A stretch of 64,000 nucleotides of DNA from assembly GCF_037042905.1 (NCBI RefSeq), contig NC_087252.1, positions 4,094,001-4,158,000 of the forward strand, in the 5' to 3' direction. Position 1 is the first letter of the stretch. The number at the start of each line of letters is the position of its first letter. A program made the position numbers and the translations under genes. The notes below the pieces were generated by a model. The model saw only the letters and a list, made by a program, of their open reading frames with translations, ran no database searches and was not told where the DNA came from. This stretch comes from Lytechinus pictus. Taxonomy: Eukaryota. Below are positions 14,445 through 37,258 of this stretch, piece by piece.

Positions 14445-17400
14445 CAGTAGTAGTAGTATTAAGAGTACATTTACTTTTTTAACTTTTATTTTTAGTGTAA
14501 AAACAATTGGCATCCTAATTAACATTCAAACAACGCAATGATGCATTGTCATTATGATCAAAGTGAGGACTAGGCTAGAGTTGTTGTTTCCGATTAATAA
14601 GAATAATCGTATACATATGTAACTCAAGATGTTGCGGTTAAATGCGAAATAAATTGGCCATTCAATTCTACTCATTTCTGTAAAACAACATTTAAAGTAC
14701 GAACAAATAACGAAATAAAATCCTGTTATATCATATCGATGACGGTGCTCGTAAAACCACAGAAGAAAGTTGTTTTCATTTGATAAGACATATGATAACA
14801 TTTAAGTAGTCATTTCAATTGTTACTTTTACGTAAGTACCAATTAATGGTTTAATCAAAGTATTTCCTCTTATTCTAAAAATAACGGAGCCTTGAAACGA
14901 AGCGAATAATTATGCTACGTTTTCTGATCTTGATTTAAAATCAAATAAGAGAGTTTTTATCATTGATAACTTTGAAGCCATCACTATGTCATTTCATTGG
15001 GTAATGTAAATAGTGTATTTTAGCATCCAGTTCGCAGTCGCTTTCTCCATCGTTCAGAATCTATTGAAAATACCCGTCAAATCGCAACGGACAGATTAGA
15101 GGTCATTGTCGAAAGTTGGTTGACAGAGACAGCACATCGTCTTAAGATTCGGACTGGACAGAAATTGCAAATATTTCGTTTGTCTAGAGTTCAGGACTGC
15201 TGTTTTGATTCACCTATCTTCGACAAAGGCTTCATTGTTAAGGGCTTTTGACCATATATTCTCTGCGTTATAGAAAGCGGCCGCGAAGTGATTGCTAAAA
15301 TGCCCTGATATAAAAAAAAAAAAATTTCTTTGTAAGTTATGATTGAGTAAATATTTTCATAAAATGAGACACGGATTAACATTGATGGCAAATAAGCATT
15401 ATAATTACAATATTAATTGTCTCAGAAAATCTTAGCTTTATGGGCTTTCAATTTGGGCTTTGGTGATTTCTTAATACTTGGTGATTGAATTCAAATATTG
15501 GATTCGTCTATAGGGGGCGGTTTCCTAAAGCTGTTCGTAAGTTAAGAGTGACTTTAAGAACGACTGGTGATCCTTTCTTATGCGCTAAATAATCACCAAT
15601 GAACATTATTAGTGAATATCATTTACCCCAAAAAAGACCACCCAGTCGTTCTTAAAGTCACTCTCAACTTATACGGAGAGCTATGTGAAGCGGCCCCCTT
15701 GAAACAATGCAATGTCTCACAATGTGTTACACTATGTGGATTGTGTGGAGATGCAATTCACACATGAAATGCTCAAATCTAATAGTGTGGAGGAAATGTT
15801 ATACTGTGGACACCTCGGCAATGTGAGTGCTCACAATGTGTTCACGTAGTGGACTTTGTGAGGACGATTGTGATTCACACATAGAATGCTCGAATTGAAC
15901 AGTGTGTGAGGTAATTTCACATTGTGTTTCACACCATAGGACACACTGTGTTCTTAGGGATATAAACATACCATCCATGATATTTGTCACGTGGTCCCAA
16001 GGATTCCAGGCTATAAAAATGATGAAATTGAAAAATGGAAAAGAAAATATAATTAAGTTGAGACAAATATCGATTATTGCTACACAATTAGCGTTGAAAT
16101 CTTCATATTTTCTGTTCGCTGTATTCCATCTTCAAAATAATACACTCCCATCAAAACTTCACGAAGTTAACACAATCACACCTTTAACACACACACAATC
16201 CCGATCACACATCCTTACACGCATGCAAAGAGAGAGGGGATGAAGAGAGAAAGACAGTGACACACAAATTAAAAACACCCACCCACCCACCCATACACAC
16301 ACCTCCACACACATTCACACGTATATATTCAAATATCGCAATCGGGGACTCTTTTATCATTACTTGCCAACATGGGGACGCGTAGTTGCAGTCTTATACA
16401 CGTAAATAAAATTGAATTTAATCCTGTAACCGGGCTCATTTTCGGATTATAGTTCGTTATCTGAGGGTGCTTCCTCCCGCCCCCCCCCCCCCAAAAAAAA
16501 ACAACTTGAGTTTAAGTTTGTTTAAAATTATTGATATAGGACAGATTATCTTTTATTTTTATTTTTTGGGGCCAAAATGATAAGACCTTACCATCCTCTT
16601 CATAAAGTATGGAGTTTGTAGCATTTCCGAGATAATTCCCCGCAATACAGGTAACTTTCGCAGACTTATCGGGGATGGAGATTGTGACATTATTCTCGGC
16701 GTGATTCGAACTATGGATGAGAACGTCATCGAGGAAGATGTAGAAGAAGGAGACGGCTGGAGTTGGATGGCCTTTTGATTCATTCAGGTCACATGATACG
16801 GTCATATTCGAACCCTCGATAATGAAATTTGCAATGATGCCATCAGGGGTAGGTGGTCCTGGATGTTACGAAAAAAAATAGGAATACACGTTTCTTTATT
16901 AAAGGGGTTCTCCTGGGGAGTGTTTCATCAACATTTTCATCCGACAAGTTGTCAGATCTGACATCTTTCTCTGATGTTGATTGACTGAGAGGTACTGTTA
17001 CTATGGTAACTGTCGGATAAAATGGGTCTTGTCGGATAAAACGTCCGACAAGTCCTTTCATGAAACGCCCCCCAGGCTAACAATAATGTGATTTGAAGAG
17101 ATAAAGAAAAATCAAACAAACAAAAGACTAAAAATTTGACCGAAATCAGACAAAGAATAACAAAGTTATGACATTTAAAACATTTGCATTATCTCGCTGA
17201 AACAGTTCTGCGCCTGTCTTCATGAATATTTAATGAGCAAACTGATGATGTCATTCTTGTTTTTTGTATTTTATTATATGAAATTATGTTTATTCAAATT
17301 TTGTCTCTCAAGAACTAAAAAGTTGGATTAACAAATGATTTAATGCTTTAGGCATTCATTACTGCAACTTATTTTATCATAAGGGAGACGTATCATTCAG

Positions 17401-20276
17401 ACTTATAAGAAAAAGAAGAATGATTTCATGTAAAAAAAGGGAGGTGGGGATGTAACATCATCAGACAACCTAATGAATATTCACGACGACGTGCATATGT
17501 TTTCACAAAATATTGCTAAACTTTGAAATTCAATATCTTCGTTATTTCTTATCAGATTTTGATGAAAGTTTCAGCATTTCGCTCTGTAAATTTTACTCTT
17601 TTTTTTTTAAATATAAATATTTTCAGCCCAAGTATCCTTTTAACGATTTGGGAAAATCTCGTTTCATGAATAGCCCTGAAATCTTACAGTATTTTATACA
17701 TTCATCATGAGCTTGTTTTAATTTTTATTCATTCATTAATATAGCGTTTGGATGTCTAGAGGAAAAAAAGTCACAAAATTCATCGATTTACTATACAAAA
17801 GAAATCAAATAAATGATGGAAGAAATAAACAATACTATACAAAAGAAATCAAATAAATAGATGAATAAATATAAAATAAATAAATAATAATGATAATGAA
17901 ATAGAAATCAATACACGTAGAGTAAAAATGAATAATTTGATTGAAACAATAAACAGATAAGTATTCAATGCTATTCAAGATGAAGTTCAACTTACCATGG
18001 AGATCAAGTATGGTTGACTTCTGCCAGTTAAAGTCCGTTATCTCATGTCCGCTAACAAAACATGTCAGCAACTTGTTGTAATTCTCCTTACTTGCTGAAA
18101 ATGTGAACACGCTCCTTTTATCCCATAAGAGATGATGCGAAATATCGGGGTCCGTTTCCACTATGCCCAAAGTCTGAGTGATGTTTCCTATTTTCCAAGT
18201 GATGTGCTCCTCCGGGCTGGCCCCTATGGCTTCGCATGTCCCCTGGTACAGAAGAGTATTGTTCACCATGGAAGTCTCCAAGACCAGAGATACATTTGAT
18301 TGCACTTTAAAAAGAAAAGGGAATAAATAGTTCAAACAAACAATGGAGACAATAATGCATAATGTGAATGATTAAGGTGTATGACTTTATTGATCGCGAT
18401 TTTGTAATTGGCAATCTCATCACCAAAATCCTAACAAAATAAAAGAAAAAAATTGGGCACTTCAGAAATCGAGACCCTTTGGCTTAGAACAATGTGTGCT
18501 GAACAATGATTAAGCCGAACATGATGTCTGCAAACTCTACCCAATAAACCGAATCGACCCTATCCTGCGAGAAAAAACACAGTCTGACACAGTGCAGTCA
18601 AATGGAGGACCATATGCGAAGGTTTGATTCACAGTGTGGACCTCTCGACAGTGTGGATATTCACAGTGCATTTACACACTGAATTATAATGAAGATGTGA
18701 TTTACACTGAATATAATAATGTCACACCTTGGAGTGTGGACACATCGAAATGTGTGTAGTCACAGTGTACATAAACGCAGCAAACTATTCGAAAATGTGT
18801 TGCAAAGTGTTAAAATGCTCAAATATAACGGTATGAATTCACATAATGTTTCACACTGTGAACAGACTGAGAAACATTAGCTGTTGAAATGCTGAAATGT
18901 AACAGTGAGAATATGATTTCACGTCATGCATGTTTAACAATATGGGAAAACTGCGGAAAACGGTATTCTTTCCCCAAGGGAATTCTTACCTTCAACTGCG
19001 AAATTGATTGTGTTGCTGAGAACTGCCACAGAACCACACCTATACGAACCGCTGTCTTCCACCGTGGCGTTCTGGATAGTGAGGGTCGGTGGTCCTGTTC
19101 CATCCGACGATGGTACGAAGTTGTCAAATTTTTCATAAGGAGAAACCTTTAAAGAACCGATGAAAATGAAATTGTTGCCTTCCTTCCATACGAGCAAATC
19201 AGCAGTAATCGTACCATCTGTCTCACAAGTGAAGACGGCATTGCTGCCTTCCTTCACGATAGAAGGCCCTGTCATGGTCGCAGATTGTCCGTTCGTGGAC
19301 CCCGCTACCTATATGAAATTAAAAATAATAATCGTCTGTGAATTCACTTGACAGGATATAACAATGTGATTTTAATACAAATTTTGACACGTTTGAATCC
19401 CAAGTTATTATCAATAATAATTATATTAATGATGATAATAATAATAAAAAATACCCAATATCTAATACGCGATTTTCCAAAATGGCCCAAAGCGTTTACA
19501 ATTTCAGTTTACCTAATTCATACAAATACAGTAATATTACACAATTTCTTTAAAATAATTAAATTTCAAATCTTATACCTTTTTTTAAACAAGAGGAAGA
19601 AAAAAACAGTAATGAAAAAGTGATTTGACAGAACAACCTGTCACCAAACATTCCTATCTTTCTCTTTGAGAGAATGACATTTCATTGAAAAACAGAACCG
19701 CCCCCTTCAGAGCACTGGGAATGATTTTTTTTTTAATCTGGGGTGCTAATGTAGAGGTTTTCGCTACATAATCGGGTCAAATTTTGGTCCAGAAAAAATT
19801 GACAAAAAAGGTTTCATTACAAAATGAAGGTCATTTTAGTTACATTTTTCAAGTTTTACACATCTTCCAGAATACCTGGGGTGCTTCCTATAGAGAATAG
19901 TACACGCAGCACCCCAAGGAAATTCTTGGGGGTATGTCACATGCCCAACTTGTGTGTGTATGGGGTGGGGGTTCGCTTTTAATTTCTCAGGATTTTTACG
20001 GGTGGGGTCTACATGGCCTATTTCACGATTCGTCCCTCCCCCTCTTGCAGTCACGACCTCATAATGCCGCTGATGGGCAACGTTAACATGGTTCAAGCGT
20101 AAGAAAAATCTTCAGTCAGGGGAATATCAATCCTCAGAATAAATGCAAATATTCTTATTTTACAGACTCTGAGTAAAGACGGTTTGCTTCAATTCGGCTA
20201 CGACAAATAAACTTTAGCTTACCATAGTTAACAGGAGAATCCACCTTGTAATTTTTGCCGTCTGACTTAGATTCAT
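13877..20276 (-). CDS. Gene 1: 358-aa type I membrane Ig-superfamily protein (signal peptide, V-like, CD80-like C2, C2/I, TM, 6-aa tail); nectin/CADM-like architecture
   Basis: Exons 20276-20223, 19308-18990, 18304-17996, 16858-16592 and 14004-13877. All junctions are GT-AG with phases 0,1,1,1. The total is 1077 nt and open to TAA. Each Ig exon has paired Cys, domains 1-2 have the core Trp, and there is a hydrophobic TM. Confidence 0.85.
14058..14497. mobile_element. CACTC MITE copy containing a (GTA/GTC)n microsatellite
   Basis: Same internal TTTACCCAATATT repeats; CACTCTA...TTTAGTG ends, TA TSD; microsatellite at about 14263-14458. Confidence 0.7.
15513..15698. mobile_element. Harbinger-like MITE family (copies about 25290-25592, 34210-34390 and 54845-55025)
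   Basis: Shared arms AAGCTGTTCGTAAGTTAAGAG-GACTTTAAGAACGACTGG and their reverse complement. Confidence 0.8.
16592..16858 (-). CDS. Gene 1 coding exon 4, third Ig domain
   Basis: GPP...EGSNMTVSCD...GHPTP...VTCIAGNYLG. The exon is 267 nt, phase 1-1. Confidence 0.88.
16916..17072. mobile_element. MITE with CWG target (copies 25383-25538, about 55350-55488 and 58210-58330)
   Basis: CTG-GGGAGTGTTTCAT ... ATGAAACGCCCCC-CAG; near-identical copy at 25383. Confidence 0.8.
17996..18304 (-). CDS. Gene 1 coding exon 3, CD80-like C2 Ig domain
   Basis: GTCEAIGASPEEHITW...SVFTFSASKENYNKLLTCFV. The exon is 309 nt, phase 1-1. Confidence 0.88.
18990..19308 (-). CDS. Gene 1 coding exon 2, V/I-like Ig domain
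   Basis: AVFTC...LVWKE...LTIQNATVEDSGSYRC. The acceptor is TAG and the donor is G|GTAAGA. Confidence 0.9.
20223..20276 (-). CDS. Gene 1 coding exon 1 (MNLSQTAKITRWILLLTM, signal peptide)
   Basis: ATG at 20276, donor ATG|GTAAGC, upstream acceptor at 20288/20289. Phase 0 matches the next exon. Confidence 0.75.
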
Positions 20277-21038
20277 CTTCGAAATTTCCTAGGTTCGTGG
20301 AAAAAGTTGAATATGTAAGTGATACGCCGAATACTTAAAAATATTCAGTGTGTTCTGTCGCGTTTAGAGTGCAGAGGAGATGATTGTAAAAATGCTTAGA
20401 AGAGATATAGCTGATTCAAAGTTGGTTGGATGCGAACTGCTTAATGCAGGCGGAGTGATAAAAGGAGAATGAAATCAATGGAACAAGTAAGCTCGCGTTA
20501 AAGCAGAAAAATGAAAAAAAAATAAGATAAGAGAGTCGAGTAAATTTGGACAGACAAGAAAAAAGTTATGACAACTTGAATAATGAAAAACGAGAATACT
20601 GATGCGATGGAGTTCCTCAAATTTGATGCAAACAAGAGCTGTGATGTGGGACACCTCCCCTTTGGACACCGTAAAAATAAAATGATGAAATAAACAATTC
20701 ATTCATGATATAATGTTGTGAAACCTGTATTACAGTTGTGTTCTCATTAAAAAAAAACACCTATAGGCCCTGTTGCAAGAAAGAAAAACTCTGGCAATTT
20801 TCGGACCTAGTTTTTTAATGTGTCATGGGCCAATACTGGCATTAATTAACTTTGTTTGCCAGAGTTTTTGTTTATTTACCAGAGTTTTCTATCAAAATTT
20901 TTATGCAACAGACCCCTAATCTTGTGGTAGGCTAGATTAAAGAGAAAATTTAGGTGAAATATGTATTAACAATCAAATCAAATGACACAAGGAAACGGGA
21001 AGAAATGCCGTAAAAATAAGTGAAGACTTGATACTTAC

Positions 21039-21120
21039 CGGCAACCGTAGAATTGAAGATTTTCTCGGCTCTAGAAGAAAGGCGATGGAAGAACGTCCTA
21101 GTTTCTTGCAGAATTGATGC
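21039..21120 (-). other. Probable 5' UTR exon of gene 1
   Basis: A consensus donor CCG|GTAAGT at 21039/21038 pairs with the acceptor at 20288. The 5' boundary is approximate. Confidence 0.45.
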
Positions 21121-21338
21121 CTAATTAACGTTTTCCGGGTGTGGCTATTCACTCGAATGATATGTATTATACAGAGCATTAATTTTCGATTATTGATTTG
21201 TTTGTTTAACGGAGGGGAAACGTTATTTGACAGAATAAGTATTTCCGTCTCATATCTTGGTGTTGATGCGGATGTTATTTATTCATCACTTAAGGATATT
21301 GTATTGCATTTCTTCAACTTGAAAGAAGTTCAGCTATA

Positions 21339-22327
21339 CAGTGCGTATCAAAAAAAAGTTTACACTTAGAAAAAAAATCCTGTAAAATTATACATTTGTA
21401 ATTTCCTGAAGATTTTTCCAGATTTTAACATTGGTACAGATCCATTTAAGCAAATGACGATATAACTGTCTAAAAATGTTACCGCTTGAGTGAGCACCAC
21501 TTACTTTTGAAAAGTTAGTGAAAAATGATTTGTGCAGAACTTTGAAATAGTTTTGCGGATGAAAGTAGACCTTAATCATGAAGAACACATGTAATTTAGC
21601 TAGTAAAATTGATTTGAAGATATCTTTTACCTTTTTAAACTTGTTTCCTTGCCCAAAACACTTTGAGGAGTGTATTACACCCCATCCCACTCCCACACAC
21701 ACCGAGGCCATCGTGACAATATTTACTTTACACTGAGCTGATCTACATGGAATGGCTTAGGCTTGATTTTCATTTTATTAATCATTGTCAAGCTTGAAAA
21801 AAAGAGTGGAGAAACAAGTATTAAATGAAAACTGAAATGTAAACCCACTTTAAATGATAAAAACTTAGTGAAAAAATGCTGGAGATGTTTGATATAAACT
21901 TTTGTTCGGATTTAGTTATGTCCTCAGATCCAGATGGCACAAAAAGGGTAAAGGGTGAGCTTACTAAGTGTTGAAATTTCAATTTGGGTGGCAAAATTAT
22001 TACAAAATGCTTGAATGTATTCGTTTTATTTCAATTGACTAAAAGTGCAAGGGAAATGTATGAGAAATTCTTCGCAGGGTAAGTTTGATTTCGCCCTTTC
22101 CCCTTGACACAGCGTGAAAAACGAGCATTTCTGCGCAAACAGATTTATGCGAGCTTTACAAAAATGGACAGCACTCACTCAGGTGTAACATTCTGTCAAA
22201 ACTTTTACTTTCATTGGATAGATGAGACCCAAACCCAAGATTATATGTGAAAATATTACCCACGTAATGTATATTTTTTAATTCCCAGGGCTTTTTCAAA
22301 GTGTAAACTTTATTTTGATACGCACTG
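21339..22327. mobile_element. Tc1/mariner-type non-autonomous element between divergent genes 1 and 2
   Basis: TA-CAGTGCGTATCAAAA...AAGTTTACACTT / AAGTGTAAACTT...TTTTGATACGCACTG-TA. Confidence 0.85.
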
Positions 22328-23077
22328 TATAATTATGTTAATGATGGGATAGTTCGGAGAGGGGTGGAATAGTCGTCGGCGACACGACATTTGCTCTGTC
22401 TAGATAAACGATGGATGTTGTCGTTCCCAAGCCAGTGCTCTGATGAAACGTTCCCAAAACCTTGCTTGTAGTCCGACCAATAGAGATAGAAATCAACAGA
22501 GCCAGCCCGTCTTCGCTGGAAGACCTAACGAAAGAGATGGAGACAGACATGCACAGAGAGGGAGAGAGAGAGAGAAGGGGAGAGAGGAAGATAGGATATG
22601 ACTAAGTCTACGGGTGAAAAGTTTGGGTAAAAATAAAGTACACCCCATTTTCACATTCTCTTTTAGAATTTTGTCGAATGAAAGTTAAAGTAGGGTTTTT
22701 TTTACGGTAGGCCCCTCCGCCTCAAACCAACCCCATCCGCACCCCAACAGAGTGAGGACGGGGCGGAGGGGGGGGGGAGATAAGAGCAACGTAACCTTTC
22801 TGAATGACGTAACAATACTTTGCGCTGCGTGACAATGCAAAACAATACACGCGCATCACAATGCGCGCTTCTTTGTAAACGCAGAATTTCGTAGATACTC
22901 CTCTGGCTGCCTAGCGCCTGGTAGCAAAATTAAACAAAGAAACAATAACTGAACCAACATGACAACATTTATTTTTTTATCAAAATAATTCAAATCATTT
23001 TAAGTCAGCAATTTTTAAAGAGAAAGCTAGGGATATGAAACACTTACTATGCTGAATTACACACATGTCAAAGAAAG

Positions 23078-23117
23078 ATGGGCTGCTGTGTTTCATCAGG
23101 AACGAAAGATGTAAAAG
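23078..23117 (+). CDS. Gene 2 exon 1 (MGCCVSSGTKDVK)
   Basis: ATG in AAGATGG context, donor AAG|GTATGG. Gly2/Cys3/Cys4/Ser6 fit a dual-acylation motif. Confidence 0.7.
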
Positions 23118-26100
23118 GTATGGAAATTTTTTTCGATTGACATCTCTTGAGACTTGACTCGTGTTATTTGAATGATGGACATTGCCAGTAAAATCCTTCA
23201 TTATGGCGACCGTATAAGTTAGAGAGAAGAGCCCTAACGTTAGGCCATTATATAAGTTAGATCTATTTGTCGATTATAATACTTAATTGCGAGTTAGTGT
23301 ATACTTGACTCTAACGTTAGATCTAACGTTAAAACTAACAATTCGATCTAAACGTAACAAACAAGTAATTTCGATTATTTCGATTATTCATATTCTTCTG
23401 TGGAATTTGAAAACTGCCGTTTTGCATAATAATTATGAGTATGGTGAGACTACCACATGTATATCGACCACCTCTTTTGAAACCGACCACCTTGCGCGCG
23501 TTAGAATTATTGCGTATTACAAACGATACGCGCGGGAGAGTAGGCGCAGTGTCCATAGAAACGGTAAGAATCGATTTTACGAGAAAAAAAGAAGCAAAAA
23601 AAAGTAAAAATTTAGTAGAATTAATCAAAATTGTATTGACCAAACCCCGCTGAAAAACCAAGAAATCCGATAGGAAACGGCTTTAGAACAAATACCCGTC
23701 GTCAATCGTCGAATCATGAGCCGGAGCTCGCACTGGAAGTAGTGAGACGATCATTTAGCATGTTGACGTCATAGAACTGATTTGGAAGAATAAAAATATT
23801 TCGCCACCGCGACAAGACTCGGCCGTAAACTTAGTGTATCGCGGGTGGTCGGTTTCAAAAGACGGGTGCAAATGAGCAAATGTAAAATCGTCGTATTCGT
23901 TGTTCGTCGATATATACGCGGCTTGAATCAAAGTCGCCGAGCGAAACATGGGAATCTGATCTGCTAAATTTTCTGCACAAATGAGACGAAAACTGGGTAA
24001 AATTGATGAATATTTTCGCAGATATGATGCTTAGAAGATTAGGTGGTCGATAAGGGGTAGTTCCAACCATACCGGTAGTAATTCGGCGGGCATGACTCGA
24101 GTAGAACTGAACTTGAAGAATCATTTCTTAGAACAGATTCCCTATAGATCTGTTAGTGTCGGGGCCTTTCTCTTTGAATTTACATCTATTTTGCTCAAAA
24201 GCTCTTCTTTAGAAAGGGACGTCATGTTCTACTTGGGGGAACTATTAATACTTCTTATCCTATATGTTCATATCTAAGTTAGATATAGACTATATATTGT
24301 GATTTTGGCCCCAAGTTTGCGCATCTAAAGATTTAACATGAATTTCTTTTTATTTCACAAAAGCTATCACTTGATAAAGTTCCTTACATCATTATGAGTG
24401 AGTGTGCCAAATATCTCATAAAAAATTGAAAGAAATATATGATTTTCTTGGAAAAAATCTCGGGCAGTCATTTTCAGATTGAAGTCATGGTGCCCCATGT
24501 CTGAGCACCCATTCACTTTGCACGCGATTCGGGATTTTGATGAGAAAGGCTGCATTTTCAAGTTAGCGTGATGATGTTTTAAGAAATATTCAATCATAGA
24601 GAACATTAACCCCCCCCCCAAAAAAAAAAAAATATATATATTGTCGTTCCATTGTAGGCTTACAGCCAGCGTACTGTTTTTTTTTTTTTTTGGGGGGGGG
24701 GGGCTTGATAATTGCATCGCCAAAAATCTCTATAGAAGACGGGGGAAAATATTAACAGGAAAACAAATTAAATTTGAAAATGTGAAATCCCCCCCTCATA
24801 TTCATTATATCATTATGCCACTGCCATATACAAAACCATATAGACTATTCTGCAGTATAAAACAATTGTGGAAATCGCATATACGGGCCACACGAAATAG
24901 ATATTTTAGACTTATGGTTATCCTTTGCTTTCTTTTAGACATTTTGAATGTCAAGACCTAAAGTTTCGCTGATTCATTTTATACTTTCTCTCTCTTTTAT
25001 CCCTTCCAAAATCTAGTTGAACCATGGCCATCTTACCACGAAACATTCAAAGGGAAAAATCCGGACATCAATTCAACGCAGGTAAGTTAGACTAGGCATA
25101 ATGATACCAAGCTGCAGGACCTGCATGGGAACAGTTTTTGAAGAGGTGCTGGTTTGGAAAAAAAAAATGACAAGCAGGAAAAAGGGAATTCAATCCAAAA
25201 ATGAAGGTGATTGTGGTCTAAAATTAATTGACAAGTAAAAATTGACATTTTTTTCGAAAACGGGGGTGATTTGGTCAAATTAAAACATTTTAAGTTGAGA
25301 GCGACTTTAAGAACGACTGGTGATCCTTGTGGTAATGATATTTTCTTTGTCGATGGTTTAGCGCGTAGGAAAGGTTCACCTGGGGAGTGCTTCATCAACA
25401 TTTTAATCCGACAAGTTGTCAGATCTGACATCTTTCTTTGATGTTAATTGGCTGAGAGATACTGTTGCTATGGTAACTGTCGGATAAAATGGACTTGTCG
25501 GATAAAACGTCCGACAAGTCCTTTCATGAAACGCTCCCCAGGCGTTCTCTAAGCCGCTCTTTACTTACGAATAGCTTTATGAAACACCCACCTGATTTCC
25601 AGGATGTGCTGCTTATGTGTTGTATAAAATGATGCTTTAATTTCTATACTTTATTGTCTCGAAACGTCCTGTCTTTGGTTTGCGTTTTATCTAGAGATTT
25701 TCTTCATAAAAAGGTCATTCATCTGTCCATGGCTCATTGAGCACTATAGAGAGAGCATTTGCCGCATTATAAATCACATATTATTAATATTATAGGATTG
25801 GTTATTACAGAGGCATGAATTTTATAGACAAGACATTTTGTCTGACTGAAGAAGAAAGAAGAAAACATTTTTTTTAATAATCACTTGGGATGGTTGATTT
25901 TAAGGAGTTGGTGACGGGCGATTTAATTTAAACTTGCATGATATTTATTATATTGTGCACATTATTTTTCTTGTGTGTGGGTGTGTGTGTACAAATATAA
26001 TGTCATCTTTTCTGTAAGTGCACATAATTAAAAAAAAAAAAAAAAAGATAATTCATTATTTTCCTATCTTTGTGTGTGTGTGTACCAAGATAATTTCATC

Positions 26101-29100
26101 CTCTCTGTAAGTGCACAGAATAAAAAAAAAATGATTATTCATTATTTTTCTTATCTTTTTTGGTGGCAGGTAACGCCGAAAGGAGCATCCGGTAAGTTTG
26201 ATTCAGAACATAGGTGGGGGGTGCTAGAGCTATGATGATTATGATGATGATGGGGGTGATGGTGGTGTGTTGGTGGTGATAACAATGAGGATGATGGTGA
26301 TGATGATGATGATGATGATGATGATGGTGGTGATGATGATGGTGGTGATGATGATGATGATGGTGGTGATGATGATGATGATGATGATGAGATGATAATG
26401 ATGATGAGATGATGATGACGATATTGATAATGATGAAATGATGATGGTGATAATGATGATGAGATGATGATGAGATGATGATGCTGATGATGATAACAAT
26501 GATAACGATAATGATGATGAAGATGGATGATGGTTATGAGAAGGTGGAGAAGGAACAAAAAAGGAAGACGAAGAAAATAAAAAGACTAGAAATAAACAGA
26601 AGAGGAAGAACGAAGATAAGAAGAGGAAGAAGAAGGAGGAACAGAAAACAAAGAAGAAGAAGATAAGAAGAATAATTCAAAGAAGAATAAAGGTAAAGGA
26701 GAAGCAGGGGATAATTAGGGAATCGAAGGGGGTAGATGCACAAACCAGTCTAGGTTATAAACAGCATTACACCGAGGGTAAAAAAAAGAAAAAGTACGGA
26801 AAAGATTTTCAGGAATAAAAGGTTGGAAAATTAGGAAATACTTCGTTTAGCTCTTAATCTTGTTAATTGCTTCATTCTATCAACAGGCGAAAGAAAGCAA
26901 CTACCTAGGAAACCAGAGCATAGACCGGGGTCAGAAGCCAACAAAAATCAAGGCAAAACTACTAACCATGTGCCAATATCAAAGTCAACTCAAACAAGCT
27001 TTCATGATGCAACCAAACACCAAGCCGCTGGGAAGCAGGTAATTGGGAAGATATATTATATATATCACAAAATGTGCGATATATAGAATATGTATCACAA
27101 ATAATTAACCCTAAAAGGACTGGGGGCCGTGATGCCCCCCTCAACGCTTTGCGCAATATTTCCGAAACGCAAAAAAGATAGCGCCGCAAATTTGTTTTAC
27201 TTTTTTCTTTAAAGAATCGCGCAACGTTTGAGACCAAATTCGCGACATACGGCTATATATAGCATCGCGACGTCACATGACTTTTTAGAAGACAATGTCA
27301 TGCAGAAAATGGCTCATTTTAATACTTTGTGTACAAAGTCTATGGAAGATGAAATTCATAAAAGGGTGATTATTTTTTATTCTAATCGGTCTGCTTAATT
27401 AATTAAGGGTTTGATTTAGTTGTTAAATGGTCTCTAATAATTTTCATTGAGAGAAACAATGAAAAACAAAAGATGAAAAAACAAAGAAATACATAAGAAA
27501 TTCTAAAAACAAAGAAATACATAAGGAAAAACCAGCTTTCGCAATTTTTTCTTAGTGGAAACCCTTAAATTAGATTACAAAGATGACTTTTGGAATAAAA
27601 AGAGAATGAATTTGGGTGCTAAATATGCAAATAACGTTTTTCACGAATAAATTTGCATATTTTATTCATAATAAATTAAAAAAAATGATTATTTTACGAA
27701 AATTTTGTAAACAGGCTTGTAGTTTATGTGGTAAAGAATGTGCGTGCCAAATTTCAGCGCGATCGCGCGAACTGCGGCCGAGATCAGAAGGGGGCAACAT
27801 GCCCCCCCCCCCAACCCCCCGTCCTCACATCCTACATCTCACGTCCTACGTCTCACATAGCCCAGTCCTTTTAGGGTTGATATATATCAAAAAGCACTTA
27901 CTGATTTTAAACCGTTTGGTTATAAGCATGAGCATTATCGCGTAGTATAATTCTCATTTTCTATGAGCAAAGTGCGAATGCCTGAGGCGCCAAGAGGCAC
28001 GAATTTTTGTCCATGAGATAGGAGGAAAGTGGTGGATATGGAATTGAGGGGGAAAGGGAAGGGTAGGATAGAGGGGTGGAGATATGGAATGGGCAACGGG
28101 CGGAAAGGATAATCTCATATAGTATTATTACGCTCTATATATGTGGAGTTGAAATATTCATGTAATTTTTTAATGTTAGATTAAGCTGTTTTTATAACAT
28201 GCATATCCTTTATACGCGTGCAAATTGTACGTAATTCATCGAATTGGCTCTGAAGTGCAATATTATTCATAAAACATTTTTAATGTCAAATCTTTTCAAA
28301 TTTGATAAGCTTTAATTTCCCCGAGGACCAACAGTTATAACAGCGTTACAACTTAAACATGTATGCACAAGATGCTTATATTTTAGCATTACACCTCATC
28401 GAGGAAGATCACCAGTGCTCGATAGAAAATTCTCTGAACGATTAAGACTTGCCTTTCATGGTCTAGTGGTCATGACTCTCGCCTTTCAAACAGAGGGGTC
28501 GGGTTCGAATCCTAGCCTTGGCATGTTTTCTTTCAGCAATAAATTTATCCAAACTGTGGTGCACTCGACCCAGGTGAGGTGAATGGGTGCCGGGCAGGAT
28601 TAATTCCTTGAATGCACTGAGCGCCGGTGATGGTAGCTGGAGCTAAAGCTGGGGTAATAATAGCAGTGTTTTGTATCCTCAGGCAAAAAAAAAACACGCT
28701 ATATAAATCCAGCTATTGTTATGATTATCATTATAATTATTATTGTCTCTGTAGGATGGAACAAAAAAGTTGGGAACAAGTCGTCTTATCCAAGTCACCG
28801 AAGCAGACTTCACAGCTGATTTCATATCTACTGAATATGAGACTCGTCCTGACAAAGCGATTGAAAATTCCGAAAGGCCACTCTCTCCACTTAACCCAGG
28901 TCAGGCAAGGGCACCAGCTGACGACCATGTAGAATTAGAATCAATCGCTGAGGAAGTTGTCAAAAACACTCCTGAGAAGGATGGTGACCTGGAGGTTGAA
29001 GACCTTGAGAAAGATGAATGTAAGATGGAAGAACTGCCTTCAAAAGAAATCGAAGATGGCGCTGTTGAACCCGCACAGGAGAGAGTCGATCATGTTGACC

Positions 29101-32100
29101 CTCAGATTGGCCAAGCGGAGAAAGTTAATAGCAAGGATGCCAATTGTTGCAAATCACAAGAACTTGAGGAGGGAAAAGAGAAGAGGAATCAGAGTGAAAG
29201 TGAAATGAAATCTGACGTAATAGAAGACGAAGAGCTTGAACTCATGATAGCAGATATAATGTCAGACACCGCAGATGTTGCAAAGCATGAACCCCATGTT
29301 CCATTGAATTGTGCATCAGAACAAATAAAAGCCATTGAACCTGTGGAGGGTCTGAATGAACGGTACAGTGAGCACTTGGCATCACTGCCTAAGCCAATAG
29401 ACACAGATACAACGGAAGTCATGGAGAAGGATAAAGATGCAGAGAAACCTGCGGAAGTTCATGAAAGATGCAGTGTCTGTCTGGCAACTGCACCTCCTCC
29501 AATGTCAACAGAGGGGGGAAAGGTCATGGGTGAAATTACCGATGCGTCACTAGACGTAACAACAGAAACTGCAGGTAAGACCACCAAGGGGACAGAAGCA
29601 AAAGGCGACTTACATGAAGCATGTAGTGTATGTCTTGCAACCGCACCACCACCTTTTTCTACTGAAGCGATTCATCCAGAGACAGATGCAAGACAGAAAG
29701 AACATATTGAGGCTTTATCAAGTGATATAGGAGAAGAAAATGAACATCAGAAAACAGAAATGCATGAAACATGCAGTGTGTGTTTGGCAACTGCAGCAGT
29801 TACTGCACCACCTTCAACAGAAACAACTAATGTAAACGAAACAAAGATAGAACAAACAGAGCTTGTTGAAGTTCCTTTGAGTGATAAAACAGGAGGAAAT
29901 ACTACACAGAAGGAAAGCAATGACCAAGAAGAAGTACATGAAGTATGTAGTGTCTGTCTTGCAACGGTTCCTCCTACAAATATCCTTGAAGAAGAACATG
30001 CTGAATCAACAGGCAAGACGGAAGCTGCTGAGGTTTCATCATCATGGACAGCAGCAGACACTGAACAAAAGGAATGTAATGAAAAAGAAGCCGAAGAATT
30101 GCATGAAACATGCAGTGTTTGTTTGGCAACTGCTCCCGAGACAACAGTTGCTGAAGAAGAAAGCACTGAAAGAACAGAGAAAACAGAAGACAGTGAATCT
30201 TCCTCAGCAAATACCCACAGGAAAGACACTGCAGCGAATCCTGAAACAGAGACGGAAGAAAACCCAGAAAAGCAAGGTGAAATGAAAGTGACTGGAAATC
30301 TAGTTGATTCTACAAGCACAACAGATACAGATACCAGTAAGGTCACTCAGGGGATAGGCAATGAGATACATGAAGCATGCAGTGTATGTATGGCAACAAC
30401 ACCTCCCACTGTTCCTGCTGTTGACATCGCGGACCCTTCCAAGGGTGATGCAGAGGAGATAGAAGTAGGAGGAGTACATAAAACATGCTTGGCAAGTGAA
30501 CCTTCTGAAAAACAAGAGGGAGAATTAAACGCCGCAAGAAGCATTTGTTCAGCCACTGACATGGCTTCATCTGTGAATGCAGGGGACGTTCCCGAAGAGA
30601 AGGTGATAAGTCCCTTGGGAACTGAGCAATCGCCTGAAGTTACAGCATCAGAAAATGATAGAGAGAACAATAGTAAGGGTAAAGGAGAAGTACATGAAAC
30701 ATGTAGTGTTTGTTTGGCCACAGGATCATCATCAGTCTCTGCAACAGAAGGGACTGGCAAGACTACCAATACCAACGCTATTTCAACAGAGGATATTCCA
30801 AAAAGTATTAAATCTCCCCCTGACACCACTCATGACACCACAGAGTGCATTACTGATAAATTAAATACAAATGAACCCCTTCCACAAGAGATTACAGAAG
30901 TAAACACTGCAAAGTCAGATGGAACGGCTACTCTAATTGAGGAATGCGACGAACCAGTGGCCAAGGTGTCTTCACAAAATGCAACAGAAGAAAACCCAGC
31001 AGAGTCAACTAAAGAAACTATCAGAGAGAGAACCAAATCATCAACACTGGTAGATGGAGAAGACAGTACAGAGGCAACCGGCCCTCCATCCACTAAAGAA
31101 GATACGGCACAGGCCATTGAGCCTGTAACTGCTGTGAAAGCAGATACTGCAATGGAAGTGGAACCTCCTATCACTGAAACAGGAGGAGACGAATCTCCAG
31201 CCACTGCACCTGAGGGAAATCCGGAGGACAACAAAGTGGCAAAAACTGCTCCAACTGAAGACACAGCAGTTCCTGTTGAATGTCCACCCATTACTACAAA
31301 GTGCACTGAAGAGACAAATGAAACAGAAATACATGCTGAAACAGTACTTAAAGACAATGTAAAGGAAGAAGTTCATCAGACATGCAGTGTCTGTTTGGCA
31401 ACCAATCCTCAGAAGGAAGTTACAGAAGAGGCACAGAATGCACAGCAGGCTGTTGAAATCAGAGATGCTGCGGAAGTACATGAAGCATGCAGTGTCTGTT
31501 TAGCCACTGAACCTATGACACCAGACACACAAGAAGAACAAACACAAGAAAAAATCAAAGAAGTTAAAGGAGAAGAAATTCATGAAACTTGCAGTGTATG
31601 TCTGGCAGCTGAAAGTCAAACAACTCAAGAAGTGGCTACCACGGACAAAGCTAGTGAAGAACGAGTGCATGAAATATGCAGTGTTTGTATGGCTACAGTG
31701 ACTGCTCCATCAGTACCGGTTGAATCAGGTCCTACAGAGCAAGTTTCCAAAGCCCATGAGGTAATTCCTCCGGTATTGGTAGAAGATGAAAATCAAACTT
31801 CAGAGACAGTTATTGAGGTTCATTACATAGAAGACATACATGATACATGTAGTGTCTGTATAGCCACTGGCTCTTCTGCTCCTGAGGAAAGTAAGAACAG
31901 CAGCAATATTAGCAAAGTTAACAAAGTTCAACAAGCTCAGGATGATATGCCAGAACCCCCAGAGCACAGCACAAAAGGAAATGCTGTAAATGCGCACGAG
32001 ATACAAGATGACAATGCCCCACTCTCATCTTCTCCCGAGGTAGCTTCATCAACAAACCAAGTCGAAAGTGATGACTTTGCAGAAGGTAGTGACCAACCTA

Positions 32101-32252
32101 ATATTCCTGTATCTACAAGTCCAACAAAGGATATAAGTAAAGAAACAGAAGATCACGATACAGAAGCTGAAACTATGGAGACTGACAAGAAAAGAGATGA
32201 TGTTGAGAACAGGGCCACAGAATCAAGCATCCCAGAAACTCCTACAGAGTAA
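23078..32252 (+). CDS. Gene 2: 1258-aa uncharacterised acidic, low-complexity protein with N-terminal MGCCVS acylation motif and 12 HExCSVC[LMI]A repeats
   Basis: Exons 23078-23117, 25017-25081, 26170-26191, 26887-27038 and 28755-32252. All junctions are GT-AG with phases 1,0,1,0, giving one open frame: MGCCVSSGTKDVKVEPWPSYHETFKGKNPDINSTQVTPKGASGERKQ...KQDGTKKLGTSRL... Confidence 0.8.
25017..25081 (+). CDS. Gene 2 exon 2
   Basis: Long pyrimidine tract plus TAG acceptor; donor CAG|GTAAGT. Confidence 0.75.
26170..26191 (+). CDS. Gene 2 micro-exon 3 (22 nt, VTPKGAS-G)
   Basis: T-rich tract plus CAG acceptor, donor CCG|GTAAGT. It is needed to bridge phase 0 to phase 1. Confidence 0.65.
26232..26710. 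repeat. (GAT/GGT)n microsatellite grading into a (GAA)-rich purine tract
   Basis: Direct reading. Confidence 0.9.
26887..27038 (+). CDS. Gene 2 exon 4
   Basis: CAACAG acceptor and CAG|GTAATT donor; open frame GERKQLPRKPEHRPG...AAGKQ. Confidence 0.75.
27109..27876. mobile_element. piggyBac-like non-autonomous element
   Basis: TTAA-CCCTAAAAGGACTGGG ... CCCAGTCCTTTTAGGG-TTGA; a related fragment lies at about 43290-43760. Confidence 0.8.
28451..28745 (+). mobile_element. tRNA(Glu-like)-derived SINE with (TTA)-like tail
   Basis: A box TGGTCTAGTGG at 28459, CTTTCAA loop, B box GGTTCGAATCC at 28502, core GCACTCGACCCAGGTGAGGTGAATGGGT. Confidence 0.82.
28755..32252 (+). CDS. Gene 2 giant exon 5 (1165 aa, E/T-rich with HExCSVC repeats)
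   Basis: 3.5-kb ORF; acceptor TCTCTGTAG at 28754 is in frame with the ORF. Confidence 0.92.
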   Translation, partial: DGTKKLGTSRLIQVTEADFTADFISTEYETRPDKAIENSERPLSPLNPGQARAPADDHVELESIAEEVVKNTPEKDGDLEVEDLEKDECKMEELPSKEIEDGAVEPAQERVDHVDPQIGQAEKVNSKDANCCKSQELEEGKEKRNQSESEMKSDVIEDEELELMIADIMSDTADVAKHEPHVPLNCASEQIKAIEPVEGLNERYSEHLASLPKPIDTDTTEVMEKDKDAEKPAEVHERCSVCLATAPPPMSTEGGKVMGEITDASLDVTTETAGKTTKGTEAKGDLHEACSVCLATAPPPFSTEAIHPETDARQKEHIEALSSDIGEENEHQKTEMHETCSVCLATAAVTAPPSTETTNVNETKIEQTELVEVPLSDKTGGNTTQKESNDQEEVHEVCSVCLATVPPTNILEEEHAESTGKTEAAEVSSSWTAADTEQKECNEKEAEELHETCSVCLATAPETTVAEEESTERTEKTEDSESSSANTHRKDTAANPETETEENPEKQGEMKVTGNLVDSTSTTDTDTSKVTQGIGNEIHEACSVCMATTPPTVPAVDIADPSKGDAEEIEVGGVHKTCLASEPSEKQEGELNAARSICSATDMASSVNAGDVPEEKVISPLGTEQSPEVTASENDRENNSKGKGEVHETCSVCLATGSSSVSATEGTGKTTNTNAISTEDIPKSIKSPPDTTHDTTECITDKLNTNEPLPQEITEVNTAKSDGTATLIEECDEPVAKVSSQNATEENPAESTKETIRERTKSSTLVDGEDSTEATGPPSTKEDTAQAIEPVTAVKADTAMEVEPPITETGGDESPATAPEGNPEDNKVAKTAPTEDTAVPVECPPITTKCTEETNETEIHAETVLKDNVKEEVHQTCSVCLATNPQKEVTEEAQNAQQAVEIRDAAEVHEACSVCLATEPMTPDTQEEQTQEKIKEVKGEEIHETCSVCLAAESQTTQEVATTDKASEERVHEICSVCMATVTAPSVPVESGPTEQVSKAHEVIPPVLVEDENQTSETVIEVHYIEDIHDTCSVCIATGSSAPEESKNSSNISKVNKVQQAQDDMPEPPEHSTKGNAVNAHEIQDDNAPLSSSPEVASSTNQVESDDFAEGSDQPNIPVSTSPTKDISKETEDHDTEAETMETDKKRDDVENRATESSIPETPTE

Positions 32253-32775
32253 GGAATCCAGAGTGTTCCTGTAGAACTTCCAAGAAATTCTGAAGATGCT
32301 AATGTTGCAGATGTTGAGGAAAATACTGTGAGAGCAGAAACTACTTCTGATGTTGGAGAAACCAGAGGGCCTGAAAGCTCAGAACCATTGACTGCAGAAC
32401 AATCCTTAGATCTACAAGCTATAAAAGTCAGTGCCTGATATACTGCTAAAGAAAATGACCGGTGTGGAGGAGGAATATCATTGAAAATTTACAACTAGTA
32501 TGTCCAATATAGTTTGCATATTCACTTGTTTTTCAATGAAAGATCAAAGTAATAATATTTTATAAAATTATGAACAATCAATACTTTTCAATCATGATAT
32601 AAATAAACCTAAATTCAAACAAAAATAATCACTTTAATTTGATATTTTTATGTTTCCTTTTAAATTAGTAATTTAAAGACAATAAAATATAATTAAAAAT
32701 CATGTAATCAGTAAATGGGCTTACTAGTAATGAATCTCTTATAACAATCTTGCAAAATAAGTAATAAGTAAGCAA

Positions 32776-32954
32776 CAGGGGCCGCGGAAGCAGGGGGGGG
32801 GGGGGGGCTGGGGGCTTCAGCCCACCACTTTTTTCCAAAACCATGTACAAAAATGTAAAAATGACCATATGATTGTGATTTTCTGCATGGTCAGCCCCCC
32901 CCCCCCCCACTATTGGCTCAGCCCTCCCACTTGAAAACTGTTCCGCGGCCCCTG
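32776..32954. mobile_element. Small G/C-tract MITE (related copy about 53927-54070)
   Basis: CAGGGGCCGCGGAA ... TTCCGCGGCCCCTG, flanked by AGCAA on both sides. Confidence 0.8.
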
Positions 32955-35653
32955 AGCAATTGTGGATTCAGACAAGGGCATAAGGGATGCGTGCCCCATC
33001 TGTATTCTGAATCACCCATTAAACTTTAAAATTGATCTAAAAAAAGAATTGAATACTGCAGACTGCACCCCCTCTATTTTCAAACTTGCTCTGTGTCCCT
33101 TTTATTTTTTAAATCCTGGATCCCCCACACCGATAGACCAAGGGACCCTTACACAGAGAGTTGAATTTAGATCTTATATTACCCAGGAACAGTACCCAGT
33201 AACATAAAGCTTAGTCACTGGTCTTGGGGCTGATTTCTATGATTGATTGCATTGACTATTGTGTATGATCAATCGTAAAAGTCAGATCAATCACTAAGCT
33301 TTATGCAACTGTTCAGACGTGGAGCAATATAAAGTTGCAGCTTGGCAACATTTTGGCAGCATTCACGCATAACACAAGACAAATCATCCCTCTTGTGTTA
33401 AAATGCACATTATCTGCTTCAAGGAAAGTTGCACATATTCATGATTTATTACATCGTGACAACATACTAATTTGTCCATGAATATATGATTAAAACTTAT
33501 TTTGCTCAAGTATTTCACAATGAATTTGACAGATTTGCATTTTTTTTCAAGTCATGCAAAAAAATTGGTCTTCTTCTCAAGTAATATCTTTTTAAAATTC
33601 TATTATTCCATCAAATTTGTTCACAACTTCTGCTGAGGTTTTATTTTCATTCCATGTCTGAACAAGCATTTTTTTCTGATTCAGATGATGGGACATTTAG
33701 TAATGTCCATGAAAATTAACGTTCTTGAAATGACATACACAATGACTGTACAGTATGGTTTATGTTGGCCTGAAATTTGATGTTTTTTTCCCCTTTGGGA
33801 TGGGGGAGGGGATCACAATGTTTGATTTACATGAGCTAATGTGAAGCTAGCATCAATGTGCCAATTTGTATTTTCTTTATTGTATTAATTTCACATATTC
33901 ATGACCAACTCTCTTCCAATTTCTTAAAACATTAACATCTTACAAACTATGAAACATGTCAACACTATTAAGAATTTTCAGTTTATTACGAATGTCACAT
34001 TTATAAAAAAATATGTGTTTTTACAATCTTTGCATGGGATACTAAAAAGTTATGAGTATGATCAACAGAAATATATGTATGAAGGTATTGAGAGGATATA
34101 TTTATCTGTTTCTCTGTCTCAATTTCTCTCAATATGGAAGCTGAGTAATACACAAAGATGTGGTACAACCGATTGATAATATGACACTCAAAATTCAATA
34201 TTGGGCTCATATATTTCATAAGCTTTTGGTAAGTTAAGAGTGTCTTTAAGAATGACTGGTGGTCCTTTCTTGTGGTACATGTAAATGATATACATGTACA
34301 CCATTTAATGTTCATTAGTGATTAGCTAGCGCAAAGAAATGGTCACCAGTCGCTCTTAACATTACTACAGCTTTATGTAACACCCACCTGGGGTGTTTCA
34401 CCAGGAGTTAAGTGCGACTTAAAAGTAATGCTTAATGCTGGCAAGCACATAATATCAACACACCATTTTATTGATTAATACGCAGAAGCGCTAGTCCTCT
34501 TGGCATGAATGACTTCATAATGTAGTGATGCATTTTACACAGCATGCAACTGAAAATTAAGGTGTGACTTCAAATCATACTTAACTCCCTGTGAAACACT
34601 CACCCATATCATCTAATATGAGTAAAACATATATGTTCAGATAATTTTTGACATTTAAACTCCCTAAGATTGTGTAAGAGTAGACGTAGTTCAGGAAAAC
34701 CATGAAAGAATGGGTGACTTCATATTCCAGCAATTAATGAAATTATTTGTAATCAATTGAGAAAAAAACATTCTAGATTTAACATTATCTTGAATTATTT
34801 GAAGATGGGCACTGATATAAGAATAACTTGGTTCCTGGAAGCTGATTGGAAATAAGCCTCATCTTTCTCACCCAATTGGCATTCTTATCAAGGAAAGATG
34901 TACATGTATGTGAATAGAATCCAAAGTCGGCAGACAAATCAAATAAACTTTAAAATCATGGTTAAAATTATTAGCATGTAGGCAATATTAGAGAAGAATG
35001 TAGAGCTGCCAGAGGTGGTAAGAGCTATGGTTCCCTCAGACTCAGAGATGCTAATACAACTATTTTCTTGAGGGACGCAGTCCCCAAAGTACATAGTATC
35101 ACCAAATCTCTGAAGGTTGTATATATCTGGTTTATATCCAGCATAGGTATTAAATGTAAGAGATATGGTCAAATGAATTAACAAATGGGAATCCCAAATG
35201 TGACATGAAATTGACAAAATCTGATAAAGGTGATCAGCAAACAATGGAACTTCTACATCACTATGCATGTGATTAAAGCTCTGTGCATGCATCCGTCAGC
35301 AGTCTGTACTATATACGGCTCAGGTAACATTTTCAGCTTGTAACGTCAGCTGTCGGAATTCACTGCATTTTTTGTGACGGTTGGAATAATGTTCAATCAC
35401 ATGAAAGGTTTATACTGATCACCTGTTCAGATTTTATGATGGATGTGGTGCAGTTACTTCACCACATACATTTTGTTTTGTCATATTCCAATTTTAGTGG
35501 CCATTTTGTCTGATTTTGATTGTGTTAGGTGCGCAGCTTCTAAAGGAATTTAAAAAGATTATGGTCCTCGGAAGGTTTATGAAAGCCAGGGTGGACATTT
35601 GGGTAAAAAGGCTGATAAACACTGTGTTTTGGTAAATCCTGTTGCACATTTAA

Positions 35654-36258
35654 AGGGATGGTTTGGGCTGAAAATATTTATATCTAAATAAATAGAGTAA
35701 AATTCACAGAGCAAATTGCTGAAAATTCATCAATATCGGATAACAAATAACGAAGTTATTGAATTTCAAAGTTCATCAATATTTTGTGAAAACAGTTATA
35801 TGCACATCATCCCAAATATTCATTAGGTGGGCTGATGATGTCTCATCCCCACTTTCCTTTTTCTTACATGTTATTACATGAAGTCATAAATGATTGATTT
35901 TTTCATACATGGGTAAATGATGTGTCTTCATTATGATGAAATATGTTGTGGCAATAAATAACTAATACACTTAATGAGTTGTCAATCAAATTGATTTAAT
36001 TCTGGGTAGAACAATTTTGAATAAACCTAATTTCATATAATAAAATACAAAAGAACAAGTGGGGATATGACATCATCAGCCCACCTAATGAATATTCATA
36101 AAGACATACCTAGAACTGTTTCACCGGAATAATGCAAATCTTTAAAATTTAATAACTTTGTTACTTGTTATCCGATTTTTATCAAATTTTCAGCATTTCG
36201 CTCTGTGAATTTTACTCTATTTATTGAGATATAAATATTCCCAGCCTGGACCATCCCT
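35654..36258. mobile_element. Kolobok-like MITE (partial relative about 17090-17642)
   Basis: TTAA-AGGGATGGT ... ACCATCCCT-TTAA with long inverted arms. Confidence 0.85.
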
Positions 36259-36600
36259 TTAATGATCCAACTACAGCATGATTTTGAACAACCAGCGTTT
36301 TAGCATAAAGTTTCATGAAGTAAAATTATTTGATTTGAAATTCAGTACAATGCTAGGAATACTAATCAGAATCCTCTTTTGCTGCCAGCCTTGTGTTCAG
36401 AGTAAAGACCAAACCTGCTTCAAGTCACAGCCGATGATGAAATCAATGTGTAACTTGCTAACACTGTACAACTTGCTTTTGGTTCATATTTTCTGGCTTG
36501 TTAAGTTGACTTTTACTTATTTTTCAATAAGACTTGGTATTCTATAGTACTTATTAAAAAGCTGACCTCATCATTTACAAGATGAAATAAAACAGTCCAG

Positions 36601-36813
36601 GGGGTGTTTCACAAAGATTTAAGTAAGACTTAAGAGTTGCAGTTTAATGCCGACGTGTACACTACATGAAACGCGCAATCATATTGGTCAATGGCAGTAG
36701 TGCGCGTCCTCATGGCATGATCTGACCAATTTGGTCATGTCTTTTATACCCCAAACGCAACTAGGCATTTAAATGCGACTCTAAGTCATACTTAAATCTT
36801 TGTGAAACACCCC
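36601..36813. mobile_element. Harbinger-like MITE (relative about 34390-34600)
   Basis: GGGGTGTTTCACAAAGATTTAAGTA ... TACTTAAATCTTTGTGAAACACCCC. Confidence 0.8.
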
Positions 36814-37258
36814 CAAGATTCATAAATGTGGTTTTGAATCAGTGGTTTGAAAACCATGCATGGGTTATGCAGATTTCATGCATGTATTGTGCTGAATTCA
36901 GTACATACATGTATAATGAGATGAACGTTTATTTTCATCACAGCATGCTAAATGCATGCCTGTGACTAAGGTTAAGTCAGCCAAATTTATATGTACACTG
37001 ATATAAAACATGGAATCACTTATCTAGACAAAACAGTTGGTTTATTAATGCTGTAATCGTAGCAACAACTGTCAATTTACCGCACTGTGATAAAAATGTG
37101 CATATTGGACGCTTTGTCAATACATGCACTGACTTTAGCATGATAAATGCATGAAATCTGCATAAAACCATGTTTTCAAACCATGGATACAGTTACACCT
37201 TTGAGAATTCAGGCTAACGTCAGGCAAATGTCTAAAAATGTTTAAAAAAGGGCAAGAG

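Follow-up and report, generated by a model that had tools for sequence, protein, structure and literature searches.

A five-exon gene model from Lytechinus pictus predicts a lipid-anchored acidic protein with twelve HxxCSVC repeats

MARCKS, BASP1, GAP-43 and AKAP12 are acidic, disordered proteins that are almost free of aromatic residues and are acylated at the N-terminus. LAMTOR1 (p18) has a predicted myristoylation of Gly2 and dual palmitoylation of Cys3 and Cys4 (PMC6454084). Bassoon has an N-myristoylation site and zinc fingers (PMC8632625) as well as three LC8-binding sites (PMC2700376). LC8 is described in published work as dimerizing disordered clients.

For N-myristoyltransferase (NMT), PMC9018777 gives a motif in which position 3 is not D, E, F, R, W or Y, position 5 is not D, E, K or R, and position 6 is A, C, G, S or T. 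The paper also states that myristoylated G-alpha subunits, G-alpha-o included, have no Lys or Arg at position 7. In the heptapeptide reporters of that study, Cys3 and Cys4 were each palmitoylated; Cys3 favoured the Golgi and Cys4 the plasma membrane (PMC9018777).

Here, we analysed one window of Lytechinus pictus DNA (the whole stretch of 64,000 nt) in which a comparable N-terminus is predicted at the start of a long repeat protein. On balance, we favour the reading that a five-exon sea urchin gene would encode a doubly acylated, LC8-dimerized, acidic and disordered cytosolic scaffold bearing 12 HxxCSVC helices.

Structure and surroundings of the gene

The features of the gene are collected in Table 1. 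An earlier note on this DNA had proposed that small upstream exons splice onto a long open frame, and its exon coordinates all proved exact: the five predicted exons have a GT donor and an AG acceptor at each join, with splice phases of 1, 0, 1 and 0 across the four junctions, and give a single stop-free frame. The predicted product has 1,258 aa, a mass of 135 kDa and a pI of 4.4. The TTG at 28770, where a list of open reading frames had begun the protein, is the sixth codon of the long exon 5 and an artefact of the bacterial code. The next Met after Met1 is residue 184.

Table 1. Positions in the window of the predicted features of the repeat gene.
Feature	Position	Strand	Remark
Candidate promoter elements: CCAAT 22477, GC box 22761, CRE-like 22805	22477..22810	+	consensus matches only
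Upstream ATGs 23035, 23049, 23065	23035..23067	+	out of frame, 13–43 nt upstream
Coding exon 1	23078..23117	+	13 full codons and 1 nt; carries the predicted start
MGCCVSS, predicted lipid anchor: N-myristoyl at Gly2, S-palmitoyl at Cys3 and Cys4	23078..23098	+	inferred
Cryptic in-phase acceptor AG 23098–23099 and possible 18-nt micro-exon 23100–23117	23098..23117	+	score 5.4
Coding exon 2	25017..25081	+	3' end is the T-Q of weak LC8 site 1
Coding exon 3	26170..26191	+	22-nt micro-exon; best acceptor in model
Coding exon 4	26887..27038	+	basic region
LC8 site 2, SKSTQT, residues 74–79	26979..26996	+	strict match, exon 4
Coding exon 5	28755..32252	+	1,165 codons; acidic, disordered
LC8 site 3, SRLIQV, residues 102–107	28779..28796	+	strict match, exon 5
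Twelve HxxCSVC repeats and one degenerate copy	29460..31859	+	29–227 aa apart, acidic spacers
61 open coding-like codons past TAA	32253..32438	+	coding score 38.6; reached by 0/3,000 stop-free non-coding controls
Two AATAAA candidate polyadenylation signals	32602..32686	+	–

All four donors fall within the top 0.03–1.1% of plus-strand GT sites, and the acceptors within the top 0.08–6%, with AG-free zones of 36–53 nt that hold 0–4 G. The acceptor at 28755 scores just 1.5 and two other model acceptors score 5.5–5.6. The matrices behind all these donor and acceptor scores are generic and were not trained on sea urchin. The splice sites of the neighbouring RBM7-like gene, which are matched to RefSeq, score similarly, at 8.8 and 3.1 for the donors and at 6.1 and 5.3 for the acceptors.

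We also compared the model with all chains of exons leading from an ATG to 28755. Once three repeats were masked, the five-exon model came first (25.2 versus 20.9 for the next); in the unmasked search, chains borrowing exons inside repeats beat it (29.8 and 27.5). Control stretches peaked at 19.2, and the model was above 40/40 of them; these stretches overlap, cover both strands and in some cases contain real genes. When the small exons were joined, codon use was coding-like in the predicted frame alone (+17.5 versus −19.6 and −25.9). Singly, their coding scores were not significant (p of 0.05–0.18 each). None of the four small exons overlaps repeats found elsewhere in the window. The gene structure is confirmed as a sequence model at the DNA level, and we are highly confident that exons 2–5 are real.

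The repeat gene, on the plus strand, lies head-to-head with an Ig-domain gene and tail-to-tail with the RBM7-like gene. The latter (37259–44719, minus strand, three exons) is identical at 348/348 positions to Lytechinus pictus RefSeq XP_063959460.1. The Ig-domain gene (about 15200–21100, minus strand) has a hydrophobic N-terminus and three Ig-like exons, and its reconstruction is without a TM segment. It may share its promoter region with the repeat gene.

Several repetitive elements occur around these genes. Between the divergent genes is an element of about 1 kb (21335–22331) with 40-nt terminal inverted repeats and strong cryptic donors, and the candidate exons 21876–21954 and 22060–22078 were rejected because they fall within it. 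A dispersed repeat in intron 4 (28459–28612), with two more copies in the window, also carries strong cryptic splice sites. Its variant 28494–28573 could substitute for exon 4 in frame; the candidate exon 28494/28537–28573 was rejected for its position within this repeat and its poor coding score. A tandem duplication of about 94 nt (25960–26158) lies just 5' of the exon 3 acceptor. Two facing 42-nt tandem arrays at 39026–39420, in RBM7 intron 1 beside exon 2, look like a foldback element, and the region 55480–57660 holds another Ig-domain exon on the plus strand and a 217-nt duplicated unit at 57271–57660. Rfam gave no match across 21000–37300.

At the 3' end, the frame past the TAA at 32250 is open and coding-like (Table 1), which suggests a recent truncation or a polymorphic nonsense change. 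The 61-codon extension is probably the former C-terminus, lost through a recent stop. The CpG observed/expected ratio is about 0.33 across 28755–37000 (exon 5 and downstream) versus 0.7–1.25 in three upstream introns. This low value is consistent with germline gene-body methylation of the repeat gene or of RBM7.

The amino terminus and its start codon

The pattern MGCC-x-[ST] has a single occurrence in the six frames of the window. It was found in 0/30 simulated 64-kb plus strands, where plain MGCC arose 0.17 times per strand. The earlier note had stated that this N-terminus fits the NMT consensus. This is correct for Gly2 and Ser6 and also for Cys3 and Val5, so that positions 2, 3, 5 and 6 all agree with the motif; the strict form with Lys or Arg at position 7, which is preferred and not required, does not apply to Ser7. 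Dual acylation, as then proposed, is supported by the residues present. However, the arrangement Gly2/Cys3/Cys4 is that of LAMTOR1 and not that of G-alpha-i, to which it had been likened (G-alpha-o has Cys3 only). The predicted protein also has neither a signal peptide nor a TM segment, as had been claimed: the best 19-residue hydropathy is 1.2, and the best 9-residue value in the first 40 aa is 0.9.

The ATG at 23078 has a strong context (A at −3, G at +4). An in-frame stop lies 14 codons upstream of it, and there can thus be no N-terminal extension unless one is spliced in. If exon 1 is the first coding exon, Gly directly follows the initiator Met and there is no in-frame upstream start. The frames of two of the upstream ATGs overlap the main start, and one overlapping-frame ATG has A at −3. 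With a cap near the GC box at 22761, these ATGs would reduce initiation at the main start.

An AG within the Ser codons of MGCCVSS is in phase and scores 5.4, so that an 18-nt micro-exon could bypass MGCC. MGCCVSS would then be intronic, and the true exon 23100–23117 would be joined to another first exon without a lipid anchor; both forms could also be made. The score of this acceptor is close to the 5.5–5.6 of two model acceptors, a 22-nt exon is already present in the gene, and the cluster of upstream ATGs is awkward for a 5' UTR. However, the AG-free zone at 23100 is 22 nt and its tract has 6 G, in contrast to the wider zones with fewer G of the model acceptors. The good upstream donors (21954 and 22078) are inside the element with terminal inverted repeats, and the best donor outside it scores 3.6. 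An open NMT-plus-Cys motif occurs in just 2 others among 3,570 acceptor-like site-by-phase combinations. We consider the micro-exon reading, alone or beside the anchored form, quite improbable.

In our judgement, the MGCC start is likely to be used in vivo and, provided that it is used, the N-terminus is very probably acylated. In the anchored form, exons 1–4 would be spliced onto the long exon 5. By the established rules, Met1 would then be removed, Gly2 myristoylated and Cys3 and Cys4 palmitoylated, and the N-terminus would be held on the cytosolic side of the plasma membrane or of an endomembrane.

LC8 motifs, acidic body and HxxCSVC repeats

Residues 34–107 contain two strict and one weak LC8 (DYNLL) motif of the TQT type, the strict ones with a polar residue at −4 and Lys or Arg at −3. 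The strict motif, [DS]-[KR]-x-[TVI]-Q-[TV], was taken from PMC3078936, with Arg at −3 allowed per PMC6607443. Site 1 is weak; its TQV spans the junction of exons 2 and 3, and it has a disfavoured Ile at −4. Under the rules of PMC6607443, site 2 ranks as good, site 3 as fair and site 1 as poor; the preferred D, E or P at +2 is found in none. When the first 110 residues were shuffled, two strict sites arose in 0/200,000 cases and three core sites in 0.07%, for a motif that had been spotted after a scan of 7 motif classes. The other 1,150 residues of the protein are free of core LC8 motifs. The pattern [KR]xTQT occurs once among the 127,996 six-frame positions, namely in exon 4 and in frame. The LC8 motifs support exon 4 and its frame, and also a cytosolic location. 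The predicted sites are reasonably likely to be bound by LC8. LC8 dimers on two or three of them would hold two chains parallel near the membrane.

The body of the protein is acidic and disordered, with a FoldIndex-type score (a simple index) below 0 in 86% of whole-protein windows, and the LC8 motifs lie in this disordered context. Aromatic residues number 12/1,258. The earlier note had suggested a membrane-tethered, cytosolic acidic scaffold similar in design to MARCKS, BASP1 and AKAP12. The cytosolic, acidic and disordered body is supported, the disorder by the index and the cytosolic location independently by the LC8 motifs. The hallmarks of these three proteins were absent: there is no Pfam family, the best net charge in 25 aa is +5, and no full RII-helix pattern occurs. 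Two loose amphipathic helices (residues 154–165 and 254–265, about 28935–29270, plus strand) recall the RII-binding helices of AKAP proteins. An AKAP reading was rejected, with 0 matches to the full RII-helix pattern and these two loose stretches only.

The protein is also Thr/Ser-rich and contains 10 N-glycosylation sequons. Such a very acidic composition could belong to a secreted or extracellular protein with disulfide-bonded CxxC motifs, for example a biomineral or matrix protein. This seems improbable in the extreme, since the model has no signal peptide or TM segment and since Gly2/Cys3/Cys4 and the LC8 motifs both point to the cytosol.

In the repeats, the positions H, C, S, V, C and A are invariant in 12/12 copies. 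Comparison of repeat codon pairs (n = 660) gave 232 third-position versus 29 second-position differences, which indicates that the repeat peptide has been preserved by purifying selection. Helical-wheel angles place His and both Cys on a single helix face together with Val and Leu. For five repeats without an alignment, AlphaFold2 predicted local helices only (mean pLDDT of 41), and the score of 0.02 for a modelled complex of two repeat copies with zinc speaks neither for nor against binding. The matches of the repeat to the RING family of Pfam were below threshold (18.3 and 14.1 bits versus a cut-off of 21; E of 0.002 and 0.04).

Three ligands alone cannot complete a tetrahedral zinc site. 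With three ligands per repeat, a second repeat or a partner would therefore be needed. We regard the question whether the repeats bind zinc as evenly balanced; metal binding rather than disulfides, as favoured in the earlier note, is plausible for this sequence. Besides metal binding and disulfides, S-acylation of the repeats may be considered, and a redox role is also possible. A zinc clasp of the Lck/CD4 type, formed with the neighbouring Ig gene, was rejected, as the Ig reconstruction has no TM segment or Cys tail.

The anchor could be right and the repeat Cys could instead be S-acylated or redox-active, in which case the protein would run along the membrane, forming a coat with many contact points or a thiol buffer. 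Both repeat Cys are on the Val/Leu helix face, by wheel angles and for helices of a low-confidence model, and the three ligands are insufficient for a self-contained zinc site. However, the His is invariant in all twelve copies, the spacing is RING-like, and the flanks of the repeats are strongly acidic. Acidic flanks disfavour lying on an anionic membrane. We hold this coat or buffer rather unlikely.

In the scaffold that we favour, the acidic disordered body would reach into the cytosol and bear 12 short amphipathic helices, each with His, Cys and Cys on one face, with a second repeat or a partner supplying what each putative zinc site lacks. The anchor and the LC8 sites together suggest a topology for a protein without a detected relative: cytosolic, membrane-tethered and probably dimeric. 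This topology turns the 12 HxxCSVC repeats into a testable hypothesis of a new inter-chain zinc motif. A stronger version, which we think unlikely, is a membrane-tethered "zinc zipper", in which dual acylation and LC8 would bring two disordered chains into register and the 12 three-ligand HxxCxxC helices of one chain would pair with those of the other around zinc. If this were true, an acidic brush of 1,100 residues would open or become cross-linked according to the zinc or redox state, and an echinoid-restricted, apparently unannotated short zinc motif and scaffold type would be new.

Relatives and comparison with known systems

Relatives were sought with exon-5 queries only. The protein collection searched includes proteins of L. 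pictus, L. variegatus, S. purpuratus, Diadema and Amphiura. In it, whole exon 5 found no relative among 7,998 candidates (0/7,998), and the repeat-rich part of exon 5 none among 291 (0/291). A profile of the repeats gave 0 matches against 1.84 billion representatives, and the exon-5 queries found no relative in the ESM Atlas or among PDB sequences. As controls of sensitivity, the repeat profile recovered its own protein at E of 2e-145, and a profile built from 7 repeats picked up a segment containing 3 repeats that had been withheld, at E of 1e-17. Three single-motif matches (L001 1872–1904, L002 10001–10039 and L003 600–659) were rejected as chance, with one copy each in unrelated frames of prokaryotic or viral contigs. 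Pfam gave no family match for exon 5, whole and in parts, or for exons 1, 2 and 4 separately (exon 3, of 7 codons, was left out). In the literature covered, which excludes most subscription journals, no match was found for the exact motif strings and nothing on the protein by topic.

Because exon 5 has no match in the collections, the gene seems to be absent from the searched protein sets; gene tables of genome projects could already list it. The RefSeq-annotated neighbour RBM7 was retrieved from the same collection and the repeat protein was not. A 135-kDa gene thus appears to be lacking from the protein sets of this genetically tractable species, although the gene beside it is annotated. Possible reasons for its absence are expression that is restricted, weak or nil, a gene model that was missed, incomplete coverage by the collection, and decay of the gene. 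In the last case, the gene would be a recently silenced or decaying one of a single lineage and rarely translated, as the failure to find it in collections including L. pictus, L. variegatus and S. purpuratus and the apparently recent stop that cuts 61 codons might indicate. However, exon 5 has 1,165 uninterrupted codons, the splice sites and N-terminal motifs are intact, and the repeats are under purifying selection. We find decay very unlikely.

By the tests run, the predicted repeat protein is outside the LAMTOR1, Bassoon, MARCKS/BASP1/AKAP12 and RING families. It shares with LAMTOR1/p18 the Gly2/Cys3/Cys4 anchor, predicted here, and the design of a scaffold held at the membrane by nothing but its anchor. 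No sequence relation to LAMTOR1 was found beyond the anchor, and the repeat protein is far longer, acidic and repetitive. It resembles G-alpha-i/o and Src-family proteins in Gly2, in Ser6 and in a Cys among its five N-terminal residues, and it is without Lys or Arg at position 7, as is G-alpha-o (PMC9018777). G-alpha-o differs in having Cys3 only instead of Cys3 and Cys4, and no folded catalytic domain follows the anchor here.

The likeness to MARCKS, BASP1, GAP-43 and AKAP12 is in the acidic, disordered and N-acylated design, with acylation predicted here; their family domains and strong polybasic effector domain are absent. The repeat is similar to the H-x2-C-x2-C-hydrophobic segment at the centre of RING (C3HC4) domains. 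However, it is below the Pfam cut-off, and the other five of the eight cross-brace ligands (about 40–60 aa) are missing.

The presynaptic scaffold Bassoon is similar in design only, as a very long scaffold with an anchor, Cys/His elements and LC8 sites. Homology to Bassoon or Piccolo and zinc fingers of the Piccolo type were looked for, with no match in Pfam or in the collection. Bassoon has two zinc fingers, whereas 12 dispersed three-ligand repeats occur here and the LC8 sites adjoin the anchor. Multivalent LC8 clients of the ASCIZ, GKAP and dynein intermediate chain type likewise have a number of TQT-type anchors within disordered sequence; the sites predicted here differ in being coupled to a lipid anchor and to Cys/His repeats. 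The anchor is a textbook one of a known kind, and the overall architecture and the repeat are new.
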